A stretch of 25,945 bases of DNA, taken from positions 1 to 25,945 of the forward strand of contig NZ_NRDO01000048.1 of NCBI RefSeq assembly GCF_010231475.1, written 5' to 3'. This document shows, in pieces, positions 4,626-9,839 of the stretch. The notes beneath the pieces were generated by a model. It made no database searches. It was not told where the DNA came from and saw nothing but the letters and a program-made list of their open reading frames with translations. Each line of letters opens with the position of its first letter. Within the stretch, counting starts at the first letter, position 1. A program made the translations under genes and the position numbers. Origin of the DNA: Citrobacter sp. NCU1 (lineage in GTDB: Bacteria > Pseudomonadota > Gammaproteobacteria > Enterobacterales > Enterobacteriaceae).

Positions 4626-4654
4626 ATGGCCCGGTCTGCATTGCCCCGGGCCAT
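4626..4654. terminator. Bidirectional hairpin terminator between convergent lysC and the NTase gene. 9-bp stem ATGGCCCGG/CCGGGCCAT with an 11-nt loop.
   Basis: A perfect inverted repeat seen in the 42-bp convergent intergenic region. Confidence 0.55.
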
Positions 4655-4656
4655 GT

Positions 4657-5451
4657 TCAGTTTCTCATCACCGTTTCATAAAGCAGCTGATCCAGTGCCT
4701 TCACATCGCCTTCCCGGCAATCCGGTAGCGTCGGCGGTATCTGGCCTCGCGCCAGTTCGGCGTGAATAAACGCATGCAGCAACGGACGCCGTAAACCATA
4801 TTCCACTTCTCCGGCACGCTGTTTACGCGCCAGCAGTTCCTCTATCTCCTGGCGTAATGGCGCATCCAGCTCACTGCCTGCCAACAGCTCGGCAAAACGC
4901 ATCGGAGGTACTCCTTTTCCCGCTTCAATCCAGCGAGCCGCCAGCAACGGGCGCAGAACGTAGAAGTACTTTTTCAACCGCACCTCTTCCCCCTGCAAAT
5001 AACCGCGAAAGTTTTTTTGCGCCATTGAGTAGTAGTGCCAGCGCGCGCGAATCGGTGAAAACCACTGTGGTATCATCGCCTTAAGCGCAATTACCGTTGC
5101 ATCATCCTGCTGATAGACCACGGGAGAGCCCAGCCACTCGATCAGCGTCGGGTTTGCCCCTTTCAGCAACCCCAGCGCTTTGCGCCACTCCCAGCCGCAC
5201 ACGTCCAGCTCATCGTCTATCGGCAGTTCGATCACGTCCCGCGCTGCTTCAACCCGCATATACCATTCCAGCGGATGGACATACAAAAAACGCACATCGT
5301 AATCGCTATCCGGCGAGGCAAAACCCCAGCCGCGACTTCCCGATTCACAGGCATACAGCACTCGAACGCCGTAGCGCGCCTCCACTTCTTTTAACTGCCG
5401 CGCGACCCGTTCGCGCATCGTGACACTCACTGAATTTTTCGTCATCTTCAT
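4657..5451 (-). CDS. Pol-beta-superfamily (minimal-type) nucleotidyltransferase, 264 aa. Last gene of the RtcR-controlled operon; it sits where rtcA lies in E. coli.
   Basis: It carries the hG[GS]-x10-DhD motif (CESGSRGWGFASPDSDYDV) in the N-terminal half. The C-terminal half is helical and contains RRPLLH (an R-x4-H, HEPN-like signature). Its ATG directly abuts the rtcB stop (TAAATG), and an AAAGGA RBS lies inside the rtcB 3' end. Confidence 0.8.
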   Translation of the reverse strand: MKMTKNSVSVTMRERVARQLKEVEARYGVRVLYACESGSRGWGFASPDSDYDVRFLYVHPLEWYMRVEAARDVIELPIDDELDVCGWEWRKALGLLKGANPTLIEWLGSPVVYQQDDATVIALKAMIPQWFSPIRARWHYYSMAQKNFRGYLQGEEVRLKKYFYVLRPLLAARWIEAGKGVPPMRFAELLAGSELDAPLRQEIEELLARKQRAGEVEYGLRRPLLHAFIHAELARGQIPPTLPDCREGDVKALDQLLYETVMRN

Positions 5452-6678
5452 TTATCCTTTGACGCACACGACCTGCCGCAGCGTATGAACGACCTCCACC
5501 AGCGAAGACTGCGCCGACATCACGGCGTCTATATCCTTGTAGGCCATCGGAATCTCATCGATCACCTCGCTGTCTTTACGACATTCAACATGAGCCGTCG
5601 CGCGAATCTGATCCGCCACGGTATAACGTTTTTTGGCCGCCGTTCGGCTCATCGTCCTTCCCGCCCCATGGCTACAGGAACAGAAGCTCTCTTCATTCCC
5701 CAGTCCACGCACGATGAAGCTTTTCGCCCCCATAGACCCCGGGATAATCCCCATTTGGCCTTTCTGCGCAGAGACGGCGCCTTTACGCGTCACCAGTACC
5801 TCTTCACCGAAGTGATGCTCTTTCTGCACATAGTTATGGTGGCAATTCACCGCTTCCTGCTGGGTGATAAAGGGTTTACTCACGATGCGCGACAGTACGG
5901 TCAGCACACGAGACATCATCACCTCCCGGTTCTGCCGGGCAAAATCCTGCGCCCATTCCACAGCTTCGATGTAGTCGTTGTAGTGTCGGCTCCCTTCCTG
6001 AAAATAGGCCAGGTTTCGGTCCGGGAGATTCGCGATATGCTGCTGCATATCCTGCTGCGCCAGCGTGATAAAGATATTACCGATGGCATTCCCCACGCCA
6101 CGCGATCCGCTGTGCAGCATTATCCAGACACGCTGTTGTTCATCCAGACACACCTCAATAAAGTGGTTACCGGTTCCCAGTGTTCCGAGATGTTGATGGT
6201 TATTGGTTTTCAGCAACGACGGATACTTGTCGGTCAGACGCGTAAAGCGCGGCACCAGATCCCCCCAGTGAGCACTCACCTCTTCTGGCGGCGTTTCCCA
6301 CGCGCCTTTATCCCGACGGGAGCGCGTATTAGTGCGCCCATGTGGGACGGCCTGCTCAATCGCGTTACGCAGCCCGCTAAGGTTATCCGGCAAATCGTCC
6401 GCCAGCAGAGAGGTGCGCACCGCAATCATCCCGCAACCGATATCCACACCCACAGCCGCCGGAATAATCGCCCCTTTGGTCGGGATCACACTACCGATGG
6501 TCGACCCCTTTCCCAGATGCACGTCCGGCATCACCGCCAGGTGTTTAAAAATGAAGGGCATCTTCGCCGTATTCAGCAGTTGCTGGCGCGCCTCGGGTTC
6601 TACCGGTACGCCGTGCGTCCACATTTTCACGGGCGCCGCATTCTGCGTCGCCAACAACTCATAGTCGTCATGCGCCAT
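5452..6678 (-). CDS. rtcB: RNA-splicing ligase RtcB (3'-phosphate/2',3'-cyclic phosphate to 5'-OH RNA ligase).
   Basis: The product is 408 aa, the same length as E. coli RtcB, and shares conserved blocks with it (MPDVHLGKGSTIGSVIPT, GTLGTGNHFIE, HNY, SCSHGAGR, MAYKDIDAVM, LRQVVCVKG). Confidence 0.95.
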   Translation of the reverse strand: MAHDDYELLATQNAAPVKMWTHGVPVEPEARQQLLNTAKMPFIFKHLAVMPDVHLGKGSTIGSVIPTKGAIIPAAVGVDIGCGMIAVRTSLLADDLPDNLSGLRNAIEQAVPHGRTNTRSRRDKGAWETPPEEVSAHWGDLVPRFTRLTDKYPSLLKTNNHQHLGTLGTGNHFIEVCLDEQQRVWIMLHSGSRGVGNAIGNIFITLAQQDMQQHIANLPDRNLAYFQEGSRHYNDYIEAVEWAQDFARQNREVMMSRVLTVLSRIVSKPFITQQEAVNCHHNYVQKEHHFGEEVLVTRKGAVSAQKGQMGIIPGSMGAKSFIVRGLGNEESFCSCSHGAGRTMSRTAAKKRYTVADQIRATAHVECRKDSEVIDEIPMAYKDIDAVMSAQSSLVEVVHTLRQVVCVKG

Positions 6679-6682
6679 ATTC

Positions 6683-7810
6683 TTATCCTTTAATATTCAC
6701 TAAGCCGTGGAGAACCTGGTCCAGTCCACCGAAAACCGAGATTTTATCGATACGTTCCGCCACTCTTTCAAGGGTTTCCATTTCCTTAAGCCGCAACGCG
6801 ATCGGGTTGTTTTCCATCACTTTGGCTGTGTTCAACAGTGAGCGTGTTGCCGCCGTCTCTTCTCGTCGGCGGACAACGTTCGCCTGAGCCGATTTCTCTG
6901 CTTCCACAACCTTCGCCAGGATGGTTTTCATCTCACCCGGCAGCACAATGTCCTTCACACCCAACGAGGCAATTTCAATACCAAAGGGCATCATGCGTTT
7001 TTTCACCTGCGCACTTACTACTTGATCAATCAACTGCTTATCCTCCAGCAATTCATCGAGAGTGCGTGTTCCCACGGCTTCACGTAGAGCGAATTGCAGC
7101 TCGCGGTAAAGGTGATCCAGCGGTTTCGCCAGTTGCCCAAAAGCCTGTAAAACATCCTGATAACGCCAGTTAGCCGCCAGATTCAAACGCAGATTCACTT
7201 TGTCTTTTGTCAGGATCTCCTGCCCCCCCACTTCCAACACCTGCAGTCGGGTATCGACCGCTTCGGCCTCCACAAGATGATTCACCTTCCAGTAAGCACT
7301 CAATCCTGGCGGCAGTAACGTCTGAGTTTCGCCATCGACTTTTAAAACGCCTACATGCCAGGCAGCAATAGACACGGTGAGAATAATATCGCGACCTTTT
7401 ACTACCCCACTGCGGCGGGGTTGCAACACGGCATTCATTACGTCTGCTGGAACCTGCACCTGCCGTGTATCCATACGCATCAGGTGCATGTTCTCAACCG
7501 ATTTCCAGTACAAACGACGTGTTGAGGGCGCAAGAATTTCTTGCAATACACCATTGATATACAGCGCACCCGCTTCAAAATCGGTTAAATCAGCGATGAT
7601 GCAATAGCGCTCAACCCATTCAGGCTGAAAACGGCGTAAATAGTCAGCCAACGCTTCCGGCACTTCACTGCCGTCCAGGTTAACGACCAGCACCTCAGGT
7701 GTATTGAACCACCACAGACGGCACTCACCCGCCTCCAGAACCTGATAGTAGTCACCATTCTTCGCTAACAGACCTAATTGCCCTTTTCGTATTGTAATTT
7801 TCTTCGTCAT
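6683..7810 (-). CDS. SPFH/band-7 (stomatin/prohibitin-like) domain protein with a ~145-aa N-terminal extra domain and no obvious N-terminal TM helix. First gene of the operon.
   Basis: The C-terminal half shows the classic SPFH core (LLPPGL..WKV..VDTRLQVLEV.GQEILTKDKV.L.LN...WRY, then the coiled-coil AEKSAQANVVRRREETAATR...). The ORF track extends to 7966. An internal ATG at 7808-7810 has a strong SD (AAGGAAAAGAGAA-ATG), whereas the ATG at 7966 has none. The stop lies 4 nt before the rtcB ATG. Confidence 0.8.
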   Translation of the reverse strand: MTKKITIRKGQLGLLAKNGDYYQVLEAGECRLWWFNTPEVLVVNLDGSEVPEALADYLRRFQPEWVERYCIIADLTDFEAGALYINGVLQEILAPSTRRLYWKSVENMHLMRMDTRQVQVPADVMNAVLQPRRSGVVKGRDIILTVSIAAWHVGVLKVDGETQTLLPPGLSAYWKVNHLVEAEAVDTRLQVLEVGGQEILTKDKVNLRLNLAANWRYQDVLQAFGQLAKPLDHLYRELQFALREAVGTRTLDELLEDKQLIDQVVSAQVKKRMMPFGIEIASLGVKDIVLPGEMKTILAKVVEAEKSAQANVVRRREETAATRSLLNTAKVMENNPIALRLKEMETLERVAERIDKISVFGGLDQVLHGLVNIKG

Positions 7811-8105
7811 TTCTCTTTTCCTTGTCAATTCAGGTGCGGGTGCAGAGGTGACGTCACAGGGAATTCCCTTTTGCCTACGACGCGGCATCATTACCGGCAA
7901 CCTGTTTTGGGGTGTGCTGACTGCGCAATACCCGTTTTTATTTCTATGATTAACAACCATTTTCATTGGAAAAATGAATCGGGAATCGAACCCATTGTTC
8001 AGGTGTCATTCGGTTGACGGAACACCTCAGGAAAACAACCGCTGCCGTTCCTGACGTGCCGGCGGGGTTTAACCCCCTGCGCTTTCAACGTGTTGACAAG
8101 AGAGT

Positions 8106-8124
8106 TATTGCCAGAAGCGTGCCA
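8106..8124 (-). promoter_or_regulatory. Predicted sigma54 (RpoN) promoter driving the SPFH-rtcB-NTase operon. Minus-strand reading: ccTGGCACGcttcTGGCAata.
   Basis: Perfect -24 element TGGCACG, a 4-nt spacer, and the -12 GC retained (TGGCA vs the TTGCA consensus). It is correctly oriented toward the operon and upstream of the AT-rich UAS-like region next to rtcR. RtcR is a known sigma54 enhancer-binding protein. Confidence 0.55.
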
Positions 8125-8129
8125 GGATG

Positions 8130-8258
8130 AAAAAAAGATGAAATTATTTTTAATTAATTGATTAATAAGGTATTAATTTTTACATTAATAATGATAATTG
8201 CAGATGCCGATTATATTTTTTATCTTTAAATATCGACATTTATCTTTTTGGATAAGCA
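8130..8258. promoter_or_regulatory. AT-rich divergent control region holding the rtcR promoter and likely the RtcR UAS/IHF sites. It contains ATTAAT motifs phased at ~10-11 bp.
   Basis: ATTAAT occurs at ~8153, 8162, 8173 and 8186. The region is extremely AT-rich compared with its flanks. Confidence 0.35.
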
Positions 8259-9839
8259 ATGAAAAAAAGGCGAGTAGTCATTGGCGTTCTGGGTACGGTA
8301 CTGGATAAACGCGGTAAGCGGGCAAATCGTTTAAAAAAATGGCGACCCACGGTCGGTCTGTGCCAACAGCCGGATTTTCCTGTTGACCGACTGGAACTTA
8401 TCCACCAGCCACGCGACGCCGGGATGTGCCAGCAACTGGCGGAAGATATCCATTTACTCTCGCCTCATACAGAGGTTCGTCCACACGCTATCGCCATTGC
8501 GAACCCGTGGGATTTCGAAGAGGTCTATGCCGCGTTCCTCGATTTTTCCACCCACTACACGTTCGATACTGCAAACGAAGAGTATTTGGTGCACATCACC
8601 ACCGGCACCCATGTAGCGCAAATTTGCTGGTTCCTGCTGACGGAAGCGCGTTATCTGCCCGCCAGTTTGCTACAAACTGGGCCTGCGGCGAAGGGCGTTC
8701 CGGAGGAGATGATTGCCCCCGGCACCTGTTCGGTCATCGATCTCGATTTAAGCCGCTATACCACGCTCACCAGTCGCTTCCAGCGCGAGCAACAGCAGTC
8801 CGTCTCATTTCTCAAAGCCGGTATCGATACGCGCAATGCCACGTTCAATAAACTGATTGACCGCATCGAGCGCGTGGCCCTGCGTTCTGGCGACCCTATT
8901 CTGCTTACCGGCCCCACGGGTGCAGGAAAATCCTTTCTCGCGAAGCGGATTTTTCAGCTTCGTCAGTCGCGGCACCGGGTTGACGGTAAACTGGTGGCGG
9001 TCAACTGCGCCACCCTGCGCGGCGATAACGCAATGTCTACGCTGTTTGGTCATGTGAAAGGGGCGTTCACGGGCGCACTGACGCCACGAACAGGTCTGTT
9101 ACGCGAAGCCAACGGTGGTGTGCTGTTTTTGGATGAAATTGCCGAACTGGGGCTGGATGAGCAAGCTATGCTGCTAAAAGCGATTGAGGAAAAAACCTTT
9201 TTCCCGTTTGGCTCCGATAAAGAGGTGCAGAGTGATTTCCAATTGATTGCGGGCACCCATCGCGATATGCCGCAATGGGTCGCCGAAGGGCGGTTTCGTG
9301 AAGATCTCTATGCACGTATTAATATGTGGAGTTTTGCCCTGCCCGGCCTCGCACAACGACGTGAAGACATCGCCCCCAACATCGAGTATGAGCTCCAACG
9401 TTTCTCCAGCAGTAGACAGCCCCAGATCCGCTTTGACAAAGAAGCGCGCGAGCGCTATCTGGCATTTGCCTGTTCACCTCAGGCGCAATGGCGCGGCAAT
9501 TTTCGCGAACTGAGTTCGTCCGTCGCGCGAATGGCAACGCTGGCCGAGCAAGGGCGTATCACCCTGGATCTCGCTGAAGAAGAGATTGCGCTGTTGCAGG
9601 AAACCTGGCGGGACACGGCGTCGCAGCCGGAACTGGAGATGGACATCGATCTCTTTGATCGCCACCAGTTGGAAACCGTGCTTGAAGTCTGCCGCCGCAG
9701 CGCGTCGTTGTCTGAAGCCGGGCGCGAACTCTTCGCCATTTCGCGGCAGAAGAAAACGAATCCTAACGATGCTGACCGCCTGCGTAAGTATCTGGCGCGT
9801 TTTGGCCTGAGCTGGGAAAGCCCCAAAGTCAGAACATGA
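8259..9839 (+). CDS. rtcR: RtcR-type sigma54-dependent transcriptional activator (N-terminal CARF domain, AAA+ sigma54-interaction domain, C-terminal HTH).
   Basis: The 526-aa product shares N-terminal (GTVLD..G.....W.KWRPT..LCQQ, NPWDFEEVYA, HITTGTHVAQICWFLL.EARYLPA) and central AAA+ (GPTGAGKSF, GAFTGA, ESELFGH-like region) blocks with E. coli RtcR. Confidence 0.92.
   Translation: MKKRRVVIGVLGTVLDKRGKRANRLKKWRPTVGLCQQPDFPVDRLELIHQPRDAGMCQQLAEDIHLLSPHTEVRPHAIAIANPWDFEEVYAAFLDFSTHYTFDTANEEYLVHITTGTHVAQICWFLLTEARYLPASLLQTGPAAKGVPEEMIAPGTCSVIDLDLSRYTTLTSRFQREQQQSVSFLKAGIDTRNATFNKLIDRIERVALRSGDPILLTGPTGAGKSFLAKRIFQLRQSRHRVDGKLVAVNCATLRGDNAMSTLFGHVKGAFTGALTPRTGLLREANGGVLFLDEIAELGLDEQAMLLKAIEEKTFFPFGSDKEVQSDFQLIAGTHRDMPQWVAEGRFREDLYARINMWSFALPGLAQRREDIAPNIEYELQRFSSSRQPQIRFDKEARERYLAFACSPQAQWRGNFRELSSSVARMATLAEQGRITLDLAEEEIALLQETWRDTASQPELEMDIDLFDRHQLETVLEVCRRSASLSEAGRELFAISRQKKTNPNDADRLRKYLARFGLSWESPKVRT

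Follow-up and report, generated by a model that had tools for sequence, protein, structure and literature searches.

The stretch of DNA analyzed here (the window) comprises 25,945 nt of the Citrobacter sp. NCU1 genome (contig NZ_NRDO01000048.1, positions 1 to 25,945). It carries a chromosomal module, located between lysC and an SBF transporter gene, in which the regulator gene rtcR is divergent from a three-gene operon encoding a Band-7 (SPFH) protein, the RNA ligase RtcB and an RlaP-type nucleotidyltransferase. A structured leader of ~290 nt lies upstream of the Band-7 gene, within the gap that separates it from rtcR. This leader RNA is the chief fresh point of our analysis and is absent from the first reading of the sequence, an earlier note that had described the four genes, their positions and the divergent rtcR. 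Gene calls and family assignments bear that description out:

4657-5451, minus strand: rlaP, RlaP-type nucleotidyltransferase, 264 amino acids (aa)
5452-6678, minus strand: rtcB, 408 aa
6683-7810, minus strand: Band-7 gene (SPFH, 'slipin'), 375 aa; a longer open reading frame (ORF) reaches 7966
8259-9839, plus strand: rtcR, 526 aa, divergent from the operon

The tight packing of the three genes, also claimed in the earlier note, can be read directly from the sequence. The Band-7 stop codon TAA is followed by 4 nt (GAAT) and the RtcB ATG, and at the next junction, TAAATG, the RtcB stop abuts the RlaP start with a 0-nt gap. The intergenic gap between rtcR and the Band-7 gene is 448 nt. We take the ATG at 7810 as the Band-7 start, giving 375 aa, because this ATG and its Shine-Dalgarno sequence align in 30 loci and because between-species indels in the 52-codon extension upstream are not multiples of three and break the frame. 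The extended ORF of 427 aa was rejected on the same grounds. The guanine-cytosine content of the module (0.55-0.56) is the same as that of its flanks.

All four gene products already have names in the NCBI annotation, which includes the labels slipin family protein, RtcB family protein and nucleotidyltransferase domain-containing protein. RtcR contains PF06956 at aa 3-188, Sigma54_activat (PF00158) at aa 192-357 and AAA_lid_14 by Pfam, scores 813 bits against a cutoff of 650 for the NCBIfam equivalog RNA_repair_RtcR, and matches the PADLOC profile RtcR--CARF_AAA_HTH at 857 bits. RtcB matches PF01139 over its full length (E 1e-131), is ~73% identical to E. coli rtcB at the nucleotide level and contains the motifs GCGM, GTGNHF, HSGSRG and HGAGR (aa 337-341). 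The third operon protein, which the earlier note had recognized as a nucleotidyltransferase of the Pol-beta type, is indeed one, and the hidden Markov model search names its family: PF10127 RlaP ("RlaP, RNA repair pathway DNA polymerase beta family"), with 312 bits over profile positions 1-248 of 249. Its catalytic GS-x10-DxD motif, GSRGWGFASPDSDYD, lies at aa 38-52, and it is 54-56% identical to its counterparts in Pseudomonas RtcR/Band-7/RtcB/RlaP(/RtcA) loci. No solved structure in the Protein Data Bank was matched by the RlaP sequence. Among the window ORFs scanned, no family match to RtcA was found, the other large ORFs scanned being housekeeping genes, and the family scans turned up no TROVE/Ro60 protein or archease. 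The absence of RtcA, Rsr and archease reported in the earlier note thus holds for these ORFs.

The Band-7 protein (Band_7 PF01145, 89 bits) had been credited in the earlier note with a novel N-terminal domain of ~145 aa. Our modeling does not support this. An AlphaFold2 model built from a 69-sequence alignment (predicted local distance difference test score, pLDDT, 92) starts with three tandem beta modules of ~55 aa, continues with an SPFH alpha/beta core and ends in long C-terminal helices. Five strands plus helices make up each of the segments 1-69 and 70-129, and the strand pattern is repeated in residues 143-186, leading into the SPFH core, so that the third module belongs to the SPFH domain itself. 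Profile-profile comparison of the three N-terminal segments gives probabilities of 98.8-98.9%. Therefore, the "novel domain" is the beta module that opens the SPFH domain, present in two additional copies, and the N-terminal ~140 aa consist of repeated SPFH beta modules. An N-terminal transmembrane or hydrophobic hairpin anchor is typical of stomatin, HflK/C and QmcA. By hydropathy alone, the protein has no membrane anchor; the maximum Kyte-Doolittle value (19-residue window) is 1.46 and falls in a predicted beta strand. We take the protein to be cytosolic, with beta modules occupying the N-terminus in place of an anchor. In the solved structures of SPFH relatives that it matches, 16-64 chains per entry assemble into large homo-oligomers or cages, the membrane-bound ones forming 16- to 26-mer rings or cages. 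Longer homologues of 500-560 aa are found in Providencia, Gilliamella and P. soli (proteins P0122, P0125, P0127 and others). Such homologues, ~150 aa longer (L007:6001-7530, L027:3304-4869, L046:6001-7521), match the N-terminal region of the query twice and carry further module copies, and therefore the number of beta modules varies between lineages.

The features of the gap between rtcR and the Band-7 gene, together with a hairpin at the other end of the operon, are as follows:

8109-8124, minus strand: sigma54 -24/-12 promoter TGGCACGCTTCTGGCA, predicted transcription start near 8098
8013-8089, minus strand: 5' leader module, with P1 (GUUGA/UCAAC), hairpin P2 (GGGG..CCCC) and a long hairpin P3
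7972-8011, minus strand: reduced tRNA-like element, with acceptor-like GAAUGA/UCAUU around the T-arm hairpin 7980-7994 GGGUUCGAUUCCC
7831-7904, minus strand: second conserved leader stretch, probably structured, just upstream of the Shine-Dalgarno sequence
4626-4654, no strand assigned: GC-rich hairpin (AUGGCCCGG..CCGGGCCAU), read from the sequence, between the convergent rlaP and lysC

The sigma54 promoter proposed in the earlier note is confirmed as a predicted site. It is the sole match in the window, where 0.12 would be expected by chance, and it is conserved in relatives: the block TGGCACG..T.GCAA is invariant across nine enterobacterial leaders, and an equivalent site is present in all eight enterobacterial loci scanned (L002-L007, L060 and, as TGGCACGCTTCTCGCA, E. 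coli L001). Most other RtcR-linked loci also carry a sigma54 site upstream of Band-7; the scan gave none in L011, L026, L032 and L041. The start near 8098 follows from the usual sigma54 spacing. The sequence between the site and the rtcR start (8125-8258) is very AT-rich, with repeated TTAAT/ATTAA motifs, and presumably contains the RtcR binding sites and the rtcR promoter. At the distal end, the hairpin at 4626-4654 is, from its sequence, likely a shared terminator of rlaP and lysC that would mark the operon boundary; a simple terminator scan omitted it because its U tract is weak.

The 5' module begins ~10 nt past the predicted transcription start and is flanked by the conserved sequences CCGCCGGYRC...RUKCCGC. 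In the alignment of the nine enterobacterial leaders, four helices are found, and 22 of their 31 pairs show compensatory changes. Paired cells make up 95% of the helix positions, versus 40-50% when the pairing partners are slid, and none of 500 shuffles matched the observed pairing values. Many of the double changes come from a single Providencia sequence, so the independent events are fewer than the pair counts imply. Pairing in the leader helices is kept up by compensatory changes, a sign of selection. The single-sequence fold of the leader is no better than that of shuffled sequences (z -1.2), and its structure is therefore visible only by comparison with relatives. The P1-P3 module can also be aligned across 20 diverse loci; its flanking sequences are invariant there, and compensatory changes affect 15 of its 18 pairs.

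To this module we fitted a covariance model, R2. It finds exactly one match, upstream of Band-7 on the same strand, in 47 of the 85 sources searched, and ~27 of the 47 matches lie outside the training set. The window, itself a training sequence, scores 67.2 bits; relatives outside the training set score 59.8 (C. amalonaticus, L085), 53.6 (C. portucalensis, L083) and 41.9 bits (E. coli, L001). The positive sources include loci that have no RtcR or no sigma54 site. R2 gives no match in the canonical E. coli rtcBA locus (L082) or in cyanobacterial loci that contain Band-7 only. By these alignments and matches, the P1-P3 module is not specific to enterobacteria. Rfam 15 has no family for the leader; the whole window was searched at gathering thresholds and 7750-8300 at E<=10, with matches at chance level only. 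The second stretch, 7831-7904, is highly conserved in sequence among the nine enterobacterial leaders, and its RNAalifold prediction is a long, imperfect helix in which some pairs have changed in a compensatory way, which is weaker evidence than that for the 5' module. Its sequence is not conserved outside Enterobacterales in the 30-locus alignment.

Between these two parts lies the tRNA-like element. In most non-enterobacterial loci, ARAGORN calls one tRNA-like gene or two in the Band-7 orientation, 240-420 nt ahead of that gene and with variable or nonsensical anticodons. These are b7a-tRNAs, the Band-7-associated tRNA-like RNAs discussed below. In many that we inspected by eye, the D and T arms are near-canonical (e.g., L020:5678-5749, L010:5652-5724, L029:5675-5746), and the anticodon loop is often swapped for a UUCG or GAAA tetraloop on the anticodon stem. 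Such RNAs are therefore tRNA mimics without the usual target site of anticodon nucleases. At the homologous position in the window, the element is a T-arm/acceptor minihelix, not a cloverleaf. Its acceptor-like pairing was read by eye, and its T-loop motif is at -182 from the Band-7 ATG, compared with approximately -180 to -220 across enterobacterial loci. ARAGORN makes no call in the window or in the other enterobacterial loci, and Rfam at E<=10 on 7750-8300 gives no tRNA match. R1, a covariance model built from 45 b7a-tRNAs, matches the T arm alone in the window, and weakly (11.8 bits, E 0.39); it aligns the acceptor and T-arm minihelix in Providencia (18.4 bits) and Mangrovibacter (15.5 bits). 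An alternative cloverleaf, in which the 5' strand of P1 pairs with a strand past the T arm, was considered and rejected. P1 is preferred because the alternative offers 3-5 bp only and is not conserved in Superficieibacter, Mangrovibacter or Providencia. The general plan of these leaders is promoter, P1-P3, tRNA-like element 1, cloverleaf b7a-tRNA 2, structured spacer and Band-7. Element 1 is a full cloverleaf in Pseudomonas and a minihelix in the window, and b7a-tRNA 2 is absent in Enterobacterales.

The earlier note had treated the Band-7/RtcB/RlaP trio as unusual and proposed a neighborhood census. The Band-7 architecture (N-terminal extension plus SPFH, ~375 aa) has 531 representatives at E<=1e-30 after clustering at 50% identity. 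A genome scan gave at least 597 loci; we retained 80 of them and scored these by tblastn with the window proteins and E. coli RtcA ('<>' marks divergently transcribed RtcR):

Band-7 alone within the flank: 29 loci, including cyanobacterial loci and several truncated contigs
Band-7-RtcB: 11 loci
RtcR<>Band-7-RtcB-RlaP-RtcA: 10 loci
RtcR<>Band-7-RtcB: 8 loci
RtcR<>Band-7-RlaP: 6 loci
RtcR<>Band-7-RtcB-RtcA-RlaP: 5 loci
RtcR<>Band-7-RtcB-RlaP, the window arrangement: 3 loci (a Burkholderia; P. entomophila, short flank; a Burkholderiales metagenome-assembled genome)
RtcR<>Band-7: 3 loci
RtcR<>Band-7-RtcB-RtcA: 3 loci
Band-7-RtcB-RlaP-RtcA: 1 locus
Band-7-RtcB-RlaP: 1 locus

Band-7 adjoins RtcB in 42 of the 80 loci, and RtcA is found downstream of Band-7 in 20. 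Loci with RtcR, Band-7, RtcB and RlaP, some of them with RtcA as well, are found repeatedly in Pseudomonas, Burkholderiales and Rhodocyclales, and contigs of the C. amalonaticus group have the identical order RtcR<>Band-7-RtcB-RlaP at the same site between SBF and lysC. The trio or near-trio is therefore common across Proteobacteria and within Citrobacter.

Smaller versions of the module occur among close relatives. In C. portucalensis/freundii, Klebsiella, Superficieibacter, Mangrovibacter and Lonsdalea (L002-L006, L060, L083, L084), the order is RtcR<>Band-7-RlaP with RtcB cleanly absent, and RlaP starts a few to ~45 nt past the Band-7 stop. Band-7 and RlaP thus persist together without the ligase in the operon. 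The leader, Band-7 and RlaP are also found in 1,625 of 5,426 complete E. coli genomes (~30%) at >=90% identity, beside yjbD/rluF. This E. coli module (A37, L001:7989-10300) has the sigma54 site TGGCACGCTTCTCGCA and no adjacent RtcR or RtcB, and the canonical E. coli RtcR, encoded at the malT-glpG locus, may control it as a second target. A megablast search of E. coli with the Citrobacter Band-7 gene and leader gave no match, the sequences being too diverged; the count was made with the E. coli copy of the module as query. In cyanobacteria (Nostoc, Calothrix and others; L066, L070, L072-L080), a Band-7 protein of the same architecture and 44-46% identity is encoded where the surrounding 6 kb hold no leader module, tRNA-like element, RtcB, RlaP or RtcR, and therefore the Band-7 family is not restricted to rtc contexts. 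No Band-7 relatives were found in a scan of viral contigs, and a plasmid search gave one weak Citrobacter match and nothing else.

The surroundings of the module are core genes. On one side are pgi and lysC, and on the other the SBF transporter gene, yjbD and rluF, followed by a Na/Pi cotransporter gene, metH, iclR, aceK, aceA, aceB and metA. Here lysC, yjbD and rluF were named by synteny with annotated relatives and the other large ORFs by family scan. Several census loci have additional genes near the module. In Pseudomonas sp. 21, a basic protein of 132 aa with a zinc-ribbon-like CxxC...CxxC pattern is encoded between Band-7 and RtcB (L008:7169-7567), and in Delftia an ORF of 281 aa occupies that place (L049:7202-8047). 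In C. portucalensis, a Gp49 (PF05973) and HTH_37 (PF13744) pair lies directly beside rtcR (L083:3259-3950, L084:3259-3950). We take this pair to resemble a toxin-antitoxin pair of the HigB/HigA type, and a potential RNA-cleaving toxin may therefore adjoin the repair regulator. Loci without RtcR (L009, L016, L019, L023, L024, L034, L045, L048, L053, L058) contain arrays of 5-16 ordinary-looking tRNA genes directly upstream, on the same strand, of the leader module, the b7a-tRNA, Band-7 and, mostly, RtcB (e.g., L045:1530-5583). Long tRNA arrays beside rtcB are documented in cyanobacteria (PMC8421152); in the literature we searched, a link between tRNA arrays and Band-7 in betaproteobacteria was not found described.

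SPFH/Band-7 modules with "a novel tRNA-like molecule" are said to figure in the abstract of the 2016 paper by Burroughs and Aravind. According to later papers, that work (Nucleic Acids Res 2016) gave RlaP its name because the family is linked to RNA ligases, and predicted that the enzyme replaces nucleotides that RNA ends have lost, ahead of ligation. A 2018 preprint from the Wolin laboratory credits the 2016 paper with the observation that RtcB lies beside Band-7 and a predicted tRNA-like b7a-tRNA in certain bacteria, states that the b7a-tRNA lacked experimental validation at that time, and proposes Band-7 and its RNA as the functional counterpart of Ro60 and YrlA. The RlaP proteins of P. fluorescens and P. 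aeruginosa add 1-2 nucleoside monophosphates (NMP) onto RNA 3'-OH ends, with damaged RNAs preferred (Carruthers, Fatma and Huang, bioRxiv December 2025). Both of these genes sit between rtcB and rtcA in RtcR-regulated operons, and the authors flag the clash between a 3'-OH product and the 3'-phosphate requirement of RtcB. In Salmonella, the RtcR ligand, bound by the CARF domain, is a 5' tRNA half with a 2',3'-cyclic phosphate end, and under some conditions RtcA plays a part in making this ligand, or in induction. The Band-7 gene of the P. aeruginosa rtc locus received the name PaFlo8 in a 2026 paper.

The Citrobacter locus can be compared with these systems part by part. With the class that comparative genomics defined in 2016, exemplified by P. 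aeruginosa PA14 (rtcR, paFlo8, rtcB, rtcA), it shares the divergent RtcR, the sigma54 promoter and the 5' module; its Band-7 has the same architecture of three beta modules at 53-59% identity, its RtcB is 73-79% identical and its RlaP 54-62%. However, it has no RtcA, which in the P. aeruginosa rtc locus follows an RlaP placed between RtcB and RtcA, and a minihelix only instead of a cloverleaf b7a-tRNA. In addition, its RtcB starts 4 nt past Band-7, whereas other loci have spacers of 80-1000 nt or extra small ORFs. The RlaPs assayed in Pseudomonas belong to the same Pfam family with a full-length match, and such rtc loci also carry Band-7. E. coli rtcR/rtcBA shares an RtcR with CARF, AAA+ and HTH domains, a divergent sigma54 promoter and an RtcB that is ~73% identical at the DNA level, but it has RtcA, lacks Band-7, RlaP and a long structured leader, and its rtcR-rtcB gap is 188 bp. 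Salmonella rsr-yrlBA-rtcBA shares RtcR control and a putative scaffold and tRNA-mimicking non-coding RNA ahead of RtcB. Its scaffold is TROVE/Ro60, whereas that of Citrobacter is SPFH, and the Citrobacter locus has RlaP and no RtcA. A relationship of the leader to Y RNA and Ro60 was rejected, as there is no Rfam match even at E<=10 and no TROVE protein among the ORFs scanned. We also count the eukaryotic vault particle (major vault protein and vault RNA) among the closest known systems.

The gene identities, architecture, conservation and RNA structure found in this analysis make it likely that the locus is a chromosomal RNA-repair operon of the Band-7/tRNA-like RNA/RtcB/RlaP class under the control of RtcR and sigma54. 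By analogy with Salmonella RtcR, the inducing signal would be the binding of 5' tRNA halves with 2',3'-cyclic phosphate by the RtcR CARF domain. Ligand-bound RtcR would oligomerize and open the sigma54 promoter at 8109-8124, making the operon RtcR-dependent. The resulting transcript would start with the ~290-nt leader, comprising the three-helix module and then the minihelix remnant of the tRNA-like element, and continue into three co-transcribed and translationally coupled genes. RtcB would seal 3'-phosphate or 2',3'-cyclic phosphate ends to 5'-OH ends, and because it accepts 3'-phosphate ends directly, RtcA should be dispensable for ligation as such. By analogy with the Pseudomonas enzymes, RlaP would add one or two NMPs to trimmed 3'-OH ends, restoring RNAs that have lost bases. 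The soluble Band-7 protein probably forms a large ring or cage, like other SPFH proteins, and this assembly may serve the repair reaction as a scaffold or enclosure, perhaps with leader-derived RNA bound to it.

Several lines of evidence favor the repair operon. The family scores are far above curated cutoffs, the catalytic motifs are intact, the genes are 0 or 4 nt apart, and a single sigma54 site and a terminal hairpin lie at the two ends. In addition, the gene set recurs in the census, the trio is found at the same site in the C. amalonaticus group, the leader is linked to Band-7, the SPFH relatives are oligomeric, and the literature agrees. The RNA-repair role suggested in the earlier note is likely right. 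Other points weigh against this interpretation. RlaP leaves a 3'-OH that RtcB cannot use, and no RtcA or kinase is encoded in the operon, so the pathway is incomplete on paper. The missing RtcA may alter induction, or rtcA may sit elsewhere in the genome. By sequence, the locus lacks the canonical cloverleaf b7a-tRNA. RtcB has been lost from the module in sister lineages, and therefore the parts can work, or persist, separately. Finally, a paFlo8 deletion showed no phenotype when growth, virulence factors, motility, biofilm formation and oxidative stress were assayed, a panel that did not include RNA damage.

The earlier note had gone further and suggested a distinct RNA-end-remodeling or anti-ribotoxin/defense system unlike the known Rtc modules. 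The gene set does differ from the textbook E. coli rtcBA and Salmonella rsr-yrlBA-rtcBA, we found no experimental study of Band-7 in RNA repair in the literature, and PADLOC recognizes RtcR alone at this locus, with no defense model that covers Band-7, RtcB or RlaP. However, the combination of SPFH/Band-7, tRNA-like RNA and RtcB, as well as the RlaP family, was described in 2016, going by later accounts of that paper, and RlaP biochemistry followed in 2025. The arrangement is frequent in Proteobacteria and in Citrobacter, and all four products were already named by NCBI. A common, described arrangement with a named nucleotidyltransferase is largely what we found, and a previously unrecognized system is highly improbable. 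The same distribution could instead reflect decay, with the enterobacterial module as a remnant of a full system (RtcR, leader, twin tRNA-like elements, Band-7, RtcB, RlaP and RtcA) that lacks RtcA and the canonical b7a-tRNA and is either non-functional or accessory to another rtc locus elsewhere in the genome. Stepwise loss fits this idea. The system is complete in Pseudomonas and Burkholderiales; RtcA and b7a-tRNA 2 are gone from the window; RtcB is missing as well in C. portucalensis, Klebsiella, Mangrovibacter and Lonsdalea; and E. coli has neither RtcB nor an adjacent RtcR. Yet the four ORFs and their catalytic motifs are intact, the compensatory changes in the leader helices indicate selection, the sigma54 site is invariant in enterobacterial leaders, and 1,625 E. 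coli genomes keep the reduced Band-7/RlaP module with >=90% identity. Decay therefore seems improbable to us.

How the leader acts is a separate question. It could be a cis-acting regulatory element, for example one that senses tRNA or its fragments, or one that governs how stable the Band-7 message is or how well it is translated, and not an RNA that works in trans as cofactor or decoy. Its position agrees with such a role, since it opens the predicted mRNA just past the promoter and is always on the Band-7 strand, as does the second conserved stretch, which abuts the Shine-Dalgarno sequence. In addition, the enterobacterial hairpin right after the T arm shares the 3' strand of the acceptor-like pairing, so that, judged by eye, two folds are possible. 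However, most loci hold complete tRNA-like genes, which tRNA-processing enzymes should cut out and which would then build up as RNAs of their own, and the module also follows tRNA gene arrays in loci that have neither RtcR nor a sigma54 site. We consider a cis-acting leader possible without favoring it. A bolder proposal, on which we place still less weight and which is rather unlikely, is that the leader is no degraded tRNA gene but a distinct, uncurated structured RNA, built from the three-helix 5' module and the T-arm minihelix and partnered specifically with soluble SPFH proteins of three beta modules in a vault-like ribonucleoprotein shell. Neither Rfam 15 nor the one later description of the 2016 work that we consulted contains the 5' module; the 2016 paper itself may describe it. 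If the proposal is true, a vault-like shell would organize repair by RtcB and RlaP, or act as a nuclease decoy or sensor, and a minimal enterobacterial form of it would work without RtcA and without a cloverleaf b7a-tRNA.

In this study, we analyzed a locus that was correctly read as an Rtc module and that is probably an ordinary, compositionally reduced member of an operon class predicted in 2016. Its value is practical. Citrobacter has a compact version of the operon, ~30% of complete E. coli genomes have a still smaller one, and genetics is easy in both. The 5' RNA module, with a covariance model and defined helices to mutate, provides a handle for asking whether Band-7 is an RNA-binding scaffold and how an RlaP that leaves 3'-OH ends fits with an RtcB that needs 3'-phosphate.

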